DNA of 64,000 nucleotides from Escherichia coli. Lineage in GTDB: Bacteria; Pseudomonadota; Gammaproteobacteria; Enterobacterales; Enterobacteriaceae. A model generated the notes under the pieces. It saw only the letters and a list, made by a program, of their open reading frames with translations. It was not told the DNA's origin and made no database searches. The translations under genes and the position numbers were made by a program. Location: NCBI RefSeq assembly GCF_024502345.1, contig NZ_JALDNN010000001.1; one strand, 5' to 3'. Shown piece by piece: positions 20,849 through 63,223 of this stretch. The stretch's first letter is position 1. Each line of letters begins with the position of its first letter.

Positions 20849-20876
20849 TTCTCCCGATTTCCTCAATTGAAATGAA

Positions 20877-20904
20877 CCCGATGATCTGCGCATCGGGTTT
20901 TTTA
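20877..20904 (+). terminator. Rho-independent terminator after cheW
   Basis: cccgatg-atctgcg-catcggg hairpin followed by a T-run. Confidence 0.8.
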
Positions 20905-20934
20905 TTTCAATTTCGCGGCGGGTGGCATCAGCAA

Positions 20935-20961
20935 TAAAGTTTCCCCCCTCCTTGCCGATAA
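20935..20961 (+). promoter_or_regulatory. Sigma-28 (FliA) class 3 promoter of the tar-tap-cheRBYZ operon
   Basis: TAAAGTTT-N11-GCCGATAA, an exact match to the FliA consensus. Confidence 0.9.
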
Positions 20962-20992
20962 CGAGATCAACTTGTTTTCAGGAAGGTGCCTT

Positions 20993-22654
20993 ATGATTAA
21001 CCGTATCCGCGTAGTCACGCTGTTGGTAATGGTGCTGGGGGTATTCGCACTGTTACAGCTTATTTCCGGCAGTCTGTTTTTTTCTTCCCTTCACCATAGC
21101 CAGAAGAGCTTTGTGGTTTCCAATCAATTACGGGAACAGCAGGGCGAGCTGACGTCAACCTGGGATTTAATGCTGCAAACGCGCATTAACCTGAGTCGTT
21201 CAGCGGTACGGATGATGATGGATTCCTCCAATCAACAAAGTAACGCCAAAGTTGAATTGCTCGATAGCGCCAGGAAAACATTGGCGCAGGCAGCGACGCA
21301 TTATAAAAAATTCAAAAGCATGGCACCGTTACCTGAAATGGTCGCTACCAGTCGTAATATTGATGAAAAATATAAAAACTATTACACAGCGTTAACTGAA
21401 CTGATTGATTATCTAGATTATGGCAATACTGGAGCTTATTTCGCTCAGCCAACCCAGGGAATGCAAAATGCAATGGGCGAAGCGTTTGCTCAGTACGCCC
21501 TCAGCAGTGAAAAACTGTATCGCGATATCGTCACTGGCAACGCAGATGATTACCGATTTGCCCAGTGGCAACTGGCGGTTATCGCGCTGGTGGTGGTATT
21601 GATTCTGCTGGTGGCGTGGTACGGCATTCGCCGTATGTTGCTTACTCCGCTGGCAAAAATTATTGCTCACATTCGCGAAATCGCCGGTGGTAACCTGGCG
21701 AATACCCTGACCATTGACGGGCGCAGTGAAATGGGCGACCTGGCGCAGAGCGTTTCACATATGCAACGCTCTTTGACTGACACCGTCACTCATGTCCGCG
21801 AAGGTTCAGATGCCATCTATGCCGGTACCCGTGAAATTGCGGCGGGCAACACCGATCTTTCCTCCCGTACTGAACAGCAGGCATCCGCGCTGGAAGAAAC
21901 TGCCTCCAGCATGGAGCAGCTCACCGCGACAGTGAAGCAAAACGCCGATAACGCCCGCCAGGCCTCGCAACTGGCGCAAAGTGCCTCCGACACCGCCCAG
22001 CACGGCGGCAAAGTGGTGGATGGCGTAGTGAAAACGATGCATGAGATCGCCGATAGTTCGAAGAAAATTGCCGACATTATCAGCGTTATCGACGGTATTG
22101 CCTTCCAGACTAATATCCTCGCGCTGAATGCCGCGGTTGAAGCCGCGCGTGCGGGTGAACAGGGCCGTGGTTTTGCCGTGGTGGCGGGTGAAGTGCGTAA
22201 TCTTGCCAGTCGCAGCGCCCAGGCGGCAAAAGAGATCAAAGCCCTCATTGAAGACTCCGTCGCACGCGTTGATACCGGTTCGGTGCTGGTCGAAAGCGCC
22301 GGGGAAACAATGAACAATATCGTCAATGCTGTCACTCGCGTGACTGACATTATGGGCGAGATTGCATCGGCATCGGATGAACAGAGCCGTGGCATCGATC
22401 AAGTCGCATTGGCGGTTTCGGAAATGGATCGCGTCACGCAACAGAACGCATCGCTGGTGCAGGAATCAGCTGCCGCCGCCGCTGCGCTGGAAGAACAGGC
22501 GAGTCGTTTAACGCAAGCGGTTTCCGCGTTCCGTCTGGCAGCCAGCCCACTCACCAATAAACCGCAAACACCATCCCGTCCTGCCAGTGAGCAACCACCG
22601 GCACAGCCACGACTGCGAATTGCTGAACAAGATCCAAACTGGGAAACATTTTGA
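20993..22654 (+). CDS. tar: Methyl-accepting chemotaxis protein II (aspartate/maltose)
   Basis: Start [11 protein letters not shown] gives 553 aa; C-terminal NWETF pentapeptide. Confidence 0.95.
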
Positions 22655-22699
22655 CGAGTATTTACTAACGCGGTCATTGCCGCCTGATGGGGAGCGTTG

Positions 22700-24301
22700 A
22701 TGTTTAATCGTATTCGAATTTCGACCACGCTGTTTTTAATTTTGATTCTCTGCGGGATCTTGCAGATTGGCAGTAACGGCATGTCTTTTTGGGCATTTCG
22801 CGACGATTTGCAACGACTGAATCAGGTCGAGCAGAGCAATCAGCAACGTGCGGCATTAGCGCAAACTCGGGCGGTAATGTTACAGGCCAGTACCGCGCTG
22901 AACAAAGCGGGCACTCTGACGGCACTTAGCTATCCGGCGGATGACATTAAAACGTTGATGACGACGGCGCGCGCCAGTCTGACGCAATCCACCACGCTGT
23001 TTAAAAGTTTTATGGCGATGACTGCGGGCAACGAGCACGTCAGGGCATTGCAAAAAGAGACGGAGAAAAGTTTTGCCCGCTGGCACAACGATCTCGAACA
23101 TCAGGCGACCTGGCTTGAAAGTAATCAACTTTCGGATTTCCTCACAGCGCCGGTGCAGGGATCACAGAATGCGTTTGACGTTAACTTTGAGGCCTGGCAG
23201 GTGGAGATCAACCATGTGCTGGAAGCCGCCAGTGCGCAAAGCCAGCGTAACTATCAGATTTCGGCGCTGGTGTTTATCAGCATGATTATTGTTGCGGCGA
23301 TCTACATCAGCAGTGCGCTGTGGTGGACGCGCAAGATGATTGTTCAACCACTGGCCATTATCGGTAGCCATTTTGACAGCATTGCTGCGGGTAATCTGGC
23401 GCGTCCGATTGCGGTATATGGTCGCAACGAGATCACCGCCATTTTTGCCAGCCTGAAGACCATGCAGCAGGCTTTGCGTGGGACGGTGAGTGATGTGCGT
23501 AAGGGAAGCCAGGAGATGCACATTGGTATCGCGGAGATTGTCGCAGGCAATAACGATCTCTCAAGTCGTACCGAACAGCAGGCGGCATCGCTGGCACAAA
23601 CGGCCGCCAGTATGGAGCAATTAACCGCCACGGTAGGGCAAAACGCCGATAACGCACGACAGGCGTCGGAACTGGCAAAAAATGCCGCGACAACGGCGCA
23701 GGCGGGCGGTGTTCAGGTCAGTACCATGACTCACACCATGCAGGAGATCGCCACCAGCTCGCAAAAAATTGGCGACATTATCAGCGTTATCGACGGAATT
23801 GCTTTCCAGACCAATATTCTGGCCCTGAATGCGGCAGTGGAAGCGGCTCGCGCCGGAGAGCAGGGGCGTGGTTTTGCGGTAGTGGCAGGTGAAGTGCGCA
23901 ATCTTGCCAGCCGTAGCGCGCAGGCAGCAAAAGAGATCAAAGGGCTGATCGAAGAGTCAGTCAATCGTGTCCAGCAGGGTTCGAAACTGGTGAATAACGC
24001 CGCCGCGACCATGACCGATATTGTCAGTTCGGTGACCCGCGTGAACGACATTATGGGAGAAATTGCTTCGGCGTCGGAAGAACAACGGCGGGGGATTGAG
24101 CAGGTTGCACAGGCTGTCAGCCAGATGGATCAGGTGACTCAGCAGAACGCCTCGCTGGTAGAAGAAGCGGCGGTGGCAACGGAACAACTGGCGAATCAGG
24201 CCGACCATCTTTCGTCGCGTGTGGCGGTATTTACCCTTGAAGAACATGAAGTAGCACGACATGAGTCGGCGCAGTTACAAATTGCGCCAGTGGTATCCTG
24301 A
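22700..24301 (+). CDS. tap: Methyl-accepting chemotaxis protein IV (dipeptide/pyrimidine)
   Basis: ATG at 22700 gives 533 aa; tar paralogue. Confidence 0.95.
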   Translation: MFNRIRISTTLFLILILCGILQIGSNGMSFWAFRDDLQRLNQVEQSNQQRAALAQTRAVMLQASTALNKAGTLTALSYPADDIKTLMTTARASLTQSTTLFKSFMAMTAGNEHVRALQKETEKSFARWHNDLEHQATWLESNQLSDFLTAPVQGSQNAFDVNFEAWQVEINHVLEAASAQSQRNYQISALVFISMIIVAAIYISSALWWTRKMIVQPLAIIGSHFDSIAAGNLARPIAVYGRNEITAIFASLKTMQQALRGTVSDVRKGSQEMHIGIAEIVAGNNDLSSRTEQQAASLAQTAASMEQLTATVGQNADNARQASELAKNAATTAQAGGVQVSTMTHTMQEIATSSQKIGDIISVIDGIAFQTNILALNAAVEAARAGEQGRGFAVVAGEVRNLASRSAQAAKEIKGLIEESVNRVQQGSKLVNNAAATMTDIVSSVTRVNDIMGEIASASEEQRRGIEQVAQAVSQMDQVTQQNASLVEEAAVATEQLANQADHLSSRVAVFTLEEHEVARHESAQLQIAPVVS

Positions 24302-24319
24302 AGTGATTGAGAAGGCGCT

Positions 24320-25180
24320 ATGACTTCATCTCTGCCCTGTGGGCAAACGTCTTTATTGTTACAGATGACCGAGCGCCTGGCGCTTTCCGACGCGCATTTT
24401 CGGCGGATAAGTCAATTGATCTATCAACGAGCCGGGATCGTTCTGGCTGACCATAAACGCGACATGGTTTACAACCGACTGGTTCGTCGTTTGCGTTCGC
24501 TGGGAATGACGGATTTCGGTCATTATCTGAACTTGCTGGAATCTAATCAGCACAGCGGTGAGTGGCAGGCGTTTATCAATTCGCTGACCACGAATCTGAC
24601 GGCATTTTTCCGTGAGGCACATCATTTCCCTCTTCTCGCGGATCACGCACGTCGCCGTTCTGGCGAGTATCGCGTATGGAGCGCGGCGGCTTCGACCGGC
24701 GAAGAGCCGTACAGCATTGCGATGACGCTGGCTGACACATTGGGCACCGCGCCCGGACGCTGGAAAGTGTTTGCCAGTGATATCGACACCGAAGTGCTGG
24801 AAAAAGCCAGAAGCGGTATCTATCGCCATGAAGAGTTGAAAAACCTGACGCCGCAGCAACTGCAACGGTATTTCATGCGAGGGACGGGACCGCATGAAGG
24901 GCTGGTACGCGTGCGTCAGGAGCTGGCGAACTATGTTGATTTTGCCCCGCTGAATTTACTGGCGAAACAGTACACCGTGCCGGGGCCGTTTGATGCGATC
25001 TTCTGTCGTAACGTCATGATCTACTTCGATCAAAATACCCAGCAGGAGATTTTGCGCCGCTTTGTTCCGCTCCTTAAACCCGACGGATTGCTGTTTGCGG
25101 GTCACTCTGAAAACTTTAGCCACCTTGAGCGCCGCTTCACGCTGCGTGGTCAGACGGTGTATGCGCTAAGTAAGGATTAA
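24320..25180 (+). CDS. cheR: Chemotaxis methyltransferase CheR
   Basis: 286 aa. Confidence 0.96.
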
Positions 25181-25182
25181 CG

Positions 25183-26636
<1,454 letters not shown>

Positions 26637-34409: not shown

Positions 34410-35165
<756 letters not shown>

Positions 35166-35551
35166 TTTTTACCGTTGCATCATGTCGCCCAATATGATGC
35201 TTGCTCGTACCAGGCCCCTGCAATTTCAACAGGGGCCTTTTTTTATCCCTGAGCAGTATAAAAAACGAACGATTACCGTGATCTGTTGAGCGGGTGACAG
35301 TGAACATAGCGTTGTGCTAAAAATATTTTATATATTCACATTAATTATGGGATTTAAATTACTAAAACTAATAAATATATATTCTAAATAGCAACTGGTT
35401 ATTCCTTAGCAATTAATGATTACATTGTAATAAATCATATTCTTTATCGATTATTTCAGGCAGTGTTGTGCCGAATTATGCAAGCGGTTAATTCGTTGTA
35501 TATTTAATTATACAATGATTTCGGTGTTCTGGAATTTAATTAGAGGAATCT

Positions 35552-39157: not shown

Positions 39158-39262
39158 GCCTGATGCGCTATGCTTATCAGGCCTACATAGTCCCTGCAAT
39201 ATATTGAATTAGCAAGGTTTTGTAGGCCGGATAAGGCGTTCACGCCGCATCCGGCAGTAATA
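39158..39262. repeat. REP/BIME cluster
   Basis: gcctgatgcgctatgcttatcaggcctac and tgtaggccggataaggcgttcacgccgcatccggca units. Confidence 0.8.
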
Positions 39263-61620: not shown

Positions 61621-62799
61621 TTAACCCTGTACTTTTACCTGTCCGGCGGCGTGCTTCGCGCGTTCAATGGCGTCAACAACACTCTCTGCAGTAGCCAGTG
61701 CCACCCCCAGACGACGGCTGCCATCAATTTCCGGCTTACCAAATAAACGAATCTGCAAATCTGCGCCTACGGCATTCTGCACATTATCAAACGTGACATT
61801 CTGACTGGTCAGTTGTGGCAGAATAACGGCAGAAGCTGCAGGACCATACTGACGGATCCCGCCAACCGGAAGTCCGAGGAAGGCACGTACATGCAGGGCA
61901 AACTCTGAGAGATCTTGAGAAATTAACGTCACCATCCCGGTATCATGTGGACGAGGGGAGACCTCACTGAAAATCACCTCATCACCACAGACAAACAGCT
62001 CGACACCAAACAGACCATAACCGCCCAGTGCCAGCACCACTTTACGGGCAATCTCCTGCGCACGTTCAAGGGCAAGCGGGCTCATTTGCTGTGGTTGCCA
62101 GGATTCACGGTAGTCGCCATCTTCCTGGCGATGACCTACTGGTGCACAGAAATGGACGCCATCCACCGCGCTGACGGTTAGCAGGGTAATTTCGAAGTCA
62201 AACTTAACGACGCCTTCAACAATTACGCGGCCCGCTCCGGCGCGACCGCCTTGCTGAGCGTATTCCCATGCCTGAGCAAGTTGCTCTGCAGAGCGAATAA
62301 ACGTCTGCCCCTTGCCGGAAGAGCTCATCACCGGTTTTACAATGCAGGGATAGCCAATGGCGGCAACCGCCTCGCGGAAAAGGCTTTCGCTATCGGCAAA
62401 ACGATAAGTGGAAGTGGGCAGCTGCAGCTCTTCTGCCGCCAGGCGACGGATACCCTCGCGATTCATCGTTAATTTCGTTGCGCGAGCGCAGGGGACAACA
62501 TTCAGTCCTTCCTCTTCAAGTTGGATCAGCATATCGGTGGCAATAGCTTCGATCTCCGGCACGATATAATGTGGTTTTTCCAGTTCAACCACACGGCGTA
62601 ATGCATCACCATCAAGCATATTAATGACATGGGAGCGATGCGCGACATGCATGGCTGGTGCGTCGGCATAGCGATCGACGGCAATCACCTCTACGCCGAG
62701 ACGCTGACACTCGATTGCCACTTCTTTACCCAGTTCACCGGAGCCTAATAACATCACGCGAGTTGCTGCCGGACGCAGCGCAGTGCCTAATAACGTCAT
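61621..62799 (-). CDS. purT: Formate-dependent GAR transformylase PurT
   Basis: 392 aa. Confidence 0.96.
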
Positions 62800-62836
62800 A
62801 ACGAATATCCCCTGATTAATTCCGCGCGCAGTATAA

Positions 62837-62852
62837 ACGAAAACGTTTGCGT
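62837..62852. promoter_or_regulatory. PurR operator upstream of purT
   Basis: acgaaaacgtttgcgt, the palindromic PUR box. Confidence 0.8.
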
Positions 62853-62895
62853 GTGTCTTTATTGCTGGTGTTGATTTCTCAACCGAAAAGAAATA

Positions 62896-62915
62896 TACTG
62901 TATAAAATCACAGTT
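62896..62915. promoter_or_regulatory. LexA (SOS) box upstream of yebG
   Basis: taCTGTataaaatcACAGtt, a CTGT-N8-ACAG motif about 20 nt upstream of yebG. Confidence 0.85.
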
Positions 62916-62932: not shown

Positions 62933-63223
62933 ATGGCGGTTGAAGTTAAATACGTAGTCATTCGTGAGGGCGAAGAGAAAATGTCGTTTACCAGCAAAAA
63001 GGAAGCCGATGCTTATGACAAAATGCTTGATACGGCGGATCTGCTTGACACCTGGCTGACAAATTCTCCAGTGCAAATGGAAGACGAGCAACGTGAAGCC
63101 CTTTCGCTATGGCTGGCAGAACAAAAAGATGTGCTGAGCACCATTCTGAAAACCGGCAAATTACCGTCCCCACAGGTCGTCGGTGCTGAATCCGAAGAGG
63201 AAGATGCCTCACACGCGGCCTGA
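62933..63223 (+). CDS. yebG: DNA damage-inducible protein YebG
   Basis: 96 aa. Confidence 0.93.
   Translation: MAVEVKYVVIREGEEKMSFTSKKEADAYDKMLDTADLLDTWLTNSPVQMEDEQREALSLWLAEQKDVLSTILKTGKLPSPQVVGAESEEEDASHAA

Follow-up and report, generated by a model that had tools for sequence, protein, structure and literature searches.

A consensus PurR operator within the promoter spacer of Escherichia coli purT

The 16-mer at positions 62837-62852 of a 64-kb stretch of Escherichia coli DNA (hereafter the window, meaning the whole stretch that was analysed) is a genuine, functional and well-conserved PurR operator of the ordinary kind, and it is the specific site published before for purT rather than a sequence that merely resembles a known system. 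The + strand there reads ACGAAAACGTTTGCGT, exactly as it had been quoted in an earlier reading of this DNA (the sequence-only reading), which had called it a PUR box. We consider it almost certain that this one operator, set in the promoter spacer, mediates simple repression of purT, in that purine-loaded PurR bound there excludes RNA polymerase.

Sequence and position of the operator

The box agrees with 15 of the 16 bases of the perfect palindrome ACGCAAACGTTTGCGT, and its two half-sites are symmetric at seven of eight pairs, with the central CpG at 62844-62845 (box positions 8-9). It also agrees at all 14 specified bases with the motif of Cho et al. (2011; Nucleic Acids Res 39:6456, PMC3159470), whose Table 1 gives the purT motif at 1,928,852-1,928,867 as a sequence identical to that in the window. 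The palindrome, the central CpG, the overlap with the promoter and the conservation, which are the properties of a PUR box that can be checked at the level of the sequence, were all found. The sequence-only reading had placed the box about 40 nt upstream of the purT start codon, in a divergent region and next to the yebG SOS box. This description holds, since the start codon, whose first base is 62799, is separated by 37 nt from the edge of the box at 62837, or by about 45 nt when the distance is taken from the centre of the box, and both the divergent arrangement and the LexA box, 43 nt from the PUR box, were confirmed. The features of the region are listed in Table 1.

Table 1. Features of the purT-yebG region, with positions in the window
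Feature	Position	Strand	Sequence or product	Basis or role
purT coding sequence	61621..62799	-	formate-dependent GAR transformylase, 392 aa	regulated gene
purT -10-like hexamer (putative)	62830..62835	-	TATACT	consensus scan, sequence
PurR operator (PUR box)	62837..62852		ACGAAAACGTTTGCGT on +; ACGCAAACGTTTTCGT in purT sense	sequence, PWM, Table 1 of Cho et al. 2011
purT -35-like hexamer (putative)	62854..62859	-	AAGACA	consensus scan, sequence
yebG promoter-like site	62871..62899	+	TTGATT, 17 nt, TATACT	consensus match only
yebG LexA (SOS) box	62896..62915	+	TACTGTATAAAATCACAGTT	neighbour of the PurR system, outside it
yebG coding sequence	62933..63223	+	DNA damage-inducible protein, 96 aa	divergent neighbour

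Read in the purT sense, the region presents AAGACA (62859-62854), an 18-nt spacer with the sequence CACGCAAACGTTTTCGTT and TATACT (62835-62830); GGGGA, which resembles a Shine-Dalgarno sequence, lies in the 30 nt separating TATACT from the ATG. The consensus scan that yielded these hexamers returned two promoter-like sites in 500 nt, where about one is expected by chance; the assignment of the -35 and -10 elements is thus putative and not proof on its own, and it agrees with the verbal description of the purT promoter given by Belliveau et al. (2018; PNAS 115:E4796, PMC6003448). The PUR box occupies 16 of the 18 bases of the predicted spacer (62836-62853), and a PurR dimer seated on it would overlap the inner edges of both hexamers, which is the classical geometry of polymerase exclusion. 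Since the box fills nearly the whole spacer between the hexamers, bound PurR would block RNA polymerase.

When a 301-bp query spanning the purT-yebG region was compared with complete E. coli genomes, 5,425 of 5,426 had a match with at least 95% identity. The genes within the match are annotated as purT and yebG, and their neighbours are edd, eda (kdgA), yebF, yebE and ptrB, which identifies the window as part of the E. coli chromosome.

As to the window itself, it is 100% identical to K-12 DH5alpha over purT-yebG and 99.1% identical over tar-tap-cheR-cheB (21913-25913), and its coordinates are shifted against those of DH5alpha by amounts that differ by about 1.3 kb from one of these regions to the other. 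From these differences in identity and offset, the window is either not K-12 or mosaic relative to K-12, with an indel in between. The window also contains three matches above the Rfam gathering score: the MicL sRNA (34937-35244, + strand, 373.7 bits), the C0465 RNA (20868-20945, - strand, 111.6 bits), which lies just upstream of the tar ORF, and the ES036/CssrF sRNA (39179-39221, - strand, 45.5 bits).

Chance expectation and conservation of the box

A consensus match of this kind could in principle arise by chance in AT-rich intergenic DNA and have no regulatory role. A loose search appears to favour this explanation: when up to three mismatches to the palindrome were allowed, 0.46 matches were expected per window, and 39 of 100 shuffled sequences contained at least one. 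Matches at that stringency are uninformative because chance alone produces about that number in each window, and the loose search was replaced by a search allowing one mismatch and by a position weight matrix (PWM). At one mismatch or fewer, the purT box is the sole site in the window, and none of 100 dinucleotide-preserving shuffles contained a site that close to the palindrome. As training sites for the PWM we took all PurR motifs in Table 1 of Cho et al. (2011) except that of purT, 27 in number, and both strands were scanned. The purT box scored 24.99 bits, which is the maximum of the matrix, while the best of the 27 training sites reached 23.5 bits; of the listed PUR boxes it therefore comes closest to the consensus, a difference in degree and nothing categorical. 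The corresponding probability is approximately 2.5-5e-10 per position, so that chance would supply 3-7e-5 matches in a 64-kb window and about 0.002 in a genome of 4.6 Mb. Across the purT-yebG region, the PWM scan found no second operator, the next best local score being below 0 bits.

The second-best PWM match in the window was CGGAAACCGCTTGCGT, on the - strand at 22511-22526, with 17.7 bits. About 0.08 matches of this strength are expected per window, and the score falls among those of ChIP-supported sites (e.g., guaBA, 16.9; carAB, 18.4). The site lies in the 3'-terminal part of the tar ORF (20972-22654), and none of the 35 regions bound in the ChIP data of Cho et al. (2011) contains it. This PurR-like site in tar is probably non-functional.

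Conservation was assessed in two samples of other species. For the pattern-seeded sample, one genome per species was scanned for ACGNAAACGTTTNCGT, which gave at least 120 loci; most of those listed are in unrelated phyla (Bacteroidota, Bacillota) and represent chance or other regulators. A tblastn comparison with PurT and YebG identified at least eight purT-linked boxes among the matches listed, all of them in Enterobacterales: Citrobacter werkmanii, Citrobacter sp. FP75, Enterobacter cloacae, Enterobacter spp. Bisph1, BIGb0383 and Ag1, Pantoea sp. AS-PWVM4 and Rosenbergiella gaditana. In these eight species, the box is identical to that of the window in the purT sense and is situated 34-43 nt from the ATG. 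Since the scan selected species through the box, the invariance of 14 of the 16 box positions is by construction; the constancy of the orientation, the distance to the gene, the neighbouring -10 and the two free positions was not imposed in this way. The protein-seeded sample was obtained, independently of the box, from a sequence search that listed PurT proteins at least 88% identical, and covers close relatives (PurT at least 89% identical). The box was present at the same position in all four of its species (E. albertii, Salmonella enterica, Citrobacter koseri and C. amalonaticus). Taken together, 12 further species of Enterobacterales carry the box at this place and in this orientation, and the DNA around it is unalignable in the more distant genera of the pattern-seeded sample. 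The central CG is invariant in these 12 species (by construction in the eight pattern-seeded ones) and in all E. coli alleles examined.

The elements of the putative promoter differ in how well they are kept. TATACT is found one base past the box in all 13 aligned species, the sole change being TAAACT in Rosenbergiella. AAGACA is retained in E. coli, E. albertii, Salmonella, Citrobacter and most Enterobacter, and is not retained in Pantoea, Enterobacter sp. Ag1 and Rosenbergiella.

That position and orientation persist in 12 further species with diverging flanks argues against a chance match, as do the single mismatch that no shuffle reached, the maximal PWM score and the published ChIP, affinity mass spectrometry and genetics (Cho et al. 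2011; Belliveau et al. 2018). On the basis of the shuffles, the PWM, the cross-species conservation and these experiments, a chance match was excluded, and the probability that we would still assign to it is negligible.

Within E. coli, we compared eight alleles selected across the range of identity, including the most divergent. The sequence from the purT ATG through the -10, plus 15 of the 16 positions of the box, is invariant among them, and the part of the spacer proximal to yebG holds several SNPs. Position 16 (62852), the outermost base, is the sole variable position that we saw in the box. A natural T-to-C change occurs there in E. coli 317, N47, Z0117EC0056 and 203740, as well as in E. 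albertii, and the resulting allele, ACGAAAACGTTTGCGC, equals the purHD operator in sequence, with a score of 22.9 bits.

Box positions 4 and 13 (62840 and 62849), which commonly vary among PurR sites, are invariant in all 13 species, with A4 and G13 on the + strand. The orientation of the half-sites is also constant in the 13 species, Pantoea and Rosenbergiella included: ACGC lies beside the -35 and ACGA beside the -10. This asymmetry could reflect a second constraint, such as tuning of RNA polymerase binding by the spacer or recognition by a second factor, or could bear weakly on the yebG promoter; we regard these readings as unlikely. Selection for an operator of maximal affinity, plus the ascertainment bias of the scan sample, is a simpler explanation and probably accounts for it.

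Control of purT by PurR and the proposed mechanism

The sequence-only reading had proposed PurR binding at this site and purine-dependent repression of a purT fusion as checks, and equivalent experiments, with positive outcomes, had in effect already been published. By ChIP-chip, Cho et al. (2011) mapped a PurR-bound region at 1,928,502-1,929,233, assigned to the transcription unit purT, in which the peak reached a log2 enrichment of 2.00 with adenine and 1.02 without it; the site is thus occupied even when adenine is not added. The same study counts purT with the directly PurR-repressed genes, whose expression changed in arrays both when purR was deleted and when adenine was added. Belliveau et al. 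(2018) carried out Sort-Seq on a purT promoter-GFP fusion with and without adenine. In minimal medium, the -10 and -35 were visible; a repressor site between them appeared only with adenine and was lost in a purR deletion, and the energy matrix inferred for this site matched that of PurR (r = 0.82). In DNA-affinity chromatography coupled with mass spectrometry, enrichment of PurR required the presence of hypoxanthine (Belliveau et al. 2018). Compared with the simple-repression architecture that these authors proposed for purT, our analysis shows no difference; what it adds is the conservation across species and the E. coli allele data.

Evidence from other strains and species is available as well. 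In a purR deletion of Yersinia pestis, purT tops the tables of derepressed purine-biosynthesis genes (log2FC = 3.92 at 26 C and 4.18 at 37 C), and the purT promoter was used in deriving the Y. pestis PurR motif. A 2026 study of ExPEC observed by EMSA that guanine and hypoxanthine enhance the binding of PurR; the DNA used was purE, not purT. The identity of the purT site with the consensus of the regulon fits both its residual occupancy without adenine in E. coli and the derepression of purT in Y. pestis, the strongest listed.

In the mechanism that we propose, when hypoxanthine or guanine is abundant, the dimer of PurR, a LacI-family protein, would take up the corepressor and then bind the palindrome. 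Once bound in the spacer between the -35 and the -10, PurR would keep the sigma-70 RNA polymerase off the purT promoter, and when purines are scarce it would depart and allow purT to be transcribed. The molecular step at purT would then be steric occlusion of RNA polymerase. E. coli carries purR, and this gene was not found in the 64-kb window. In structures of PurR bound to its operators, the central CpG at positions 8-9 is the site where Leu54 of the hinge helix intercalates. The basis for the analogy is a crystal structure of PurR with the purF operator, reportedly solved by Schumacher and colleagues in 1994; by this analogy, the DNA of the purT operator may be kinked at its central CpG. 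The purR locus is at about 1.736 Mb in the study of Cho et al. (2011).

We also considered that the palindrome might be bound chiefly by another regulator of the LacI/GalR family, for instance CytR or RbsR, the closest paralogue of PurR. Operators of the LacI family have in common a palindrome with a central CG, and RbsR, in work from Shimada and colleagues in 2013, is said to bind some purine gene promoters. Against this, the purT site is the consensus of the sites bound by PurR in ChIP. Moreover, the repressor signature in Sort-Seq disappears in the purR deletion, repression is adenine-dependent, and the factor enriched by affinity is PurR itself, only in the presence of its corepressor hypoxanthine (Belliveau et al. 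2018). Predominant binding by a different family member is therefore extremely improbable.

The divergent yebG side and comparison with other operators

The purT-yebG intergenic region spans 133 bp with 38% G+C. The CTGT-N8-ACAG core of the yebG LexA box is at 62898-62913 and is one of only two such matches in the window; the -10 of the yebG promoter-like site overlaps the LexA box. The arrangement raises the question of a shared operator that would also control yebG and link purine status to an SOS gene, given that the PUR box is just 18 nt upstream of the -35-like hexamer of yebG and within the common 133-bp region. In this position, however, the box is upstream of the yebG -35, where a repressor of the LacI type would not occlude the polymerase. 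The Sort-Seq experiments on yebG confirmed LexA and RNAP sites and none besides, with the RNAP site 9 bp downstream of the older computational annotation (Belliveau et al. 2018). In addition, Enterobacter cloacae, Pantoea and Rosenbergiella keep the purT box, and tblastn detected no yebG in the surrounding DNA that was fetched. We consider control of yebG by this box very unlikely; this reading and that of binding by another LacI-family protein were rejected on the purR-deletion and directional Sort-Seq data (Belliveau et al. 2018).

In E. coli MS 21-1 (NZ_CP146670.1, 2630-4546 of the locus stretch), an ISL3-like ISEc53 transposase and a gene of the ClbS/DfsB family, related to colibactin self-protection, are inserted between purT and yebG. 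The breakpoint falls inside the yebG LexA box, after TATAAAATC, and corresponds to position ~62909 of the window; the PurR box and the purT promoter are intact in this strain despite the insertion.

Like the PUR boxes of purF, purHD, purL, purMN and purC in E. coli, the purT box is an imperfect palindrome of 16 bp that follows the pattern ACGNAAACGTTTGCNT and has CG at its centre. The purT site has in common with other members of the regulon, of which purT is itself a listed one, its location between the -35 and the -10, as in 14 of 32 PurR-regulated promoters (Cho et al. 2011), and the dependence of binding on corepressor (Cho et al. 2011; Belliveau et al. 2018). The arrangement also resembles that of LacI with lac O1, and of LacI-GalR pairs generally, in that a dimeric helix-turn-helix repressor under allosteric control by a small ligand recognises a palindromic operator overlapping the core promoter. 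The two systems differ in the effect of the ligand, which for PurR is a corepressor that promotes DNA binding and for LacI an inducer that releases the DNA, and the operator sequences of PurR and LacI are distinct. Autoregulation of purR involves two operators downstream of the transcription start, unlike purT, which has a single operator. In the ChIP-chip data, both purB and purR are bound by PurR within the coding region (Cho et al. 2011).

The value of the purT operator as a discovery is low, as it was mapped by ChIP-chip in 2011 and described at base-pair resolution, together with a quantitative thermodynamic model, in 2018. Its use is that of a positive control, since it is a true and functional site whose coordinates and context were correctly recognised from the raw sequence. 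The additions made here are small: the operator is the consensus of the other ChIP-supported sites, its orientation is fixed in at least five named genera besides Escherichia, and a common allele of E. coli and E. albertii differs at the outermost base alone, which gives the purHD form of the operator.
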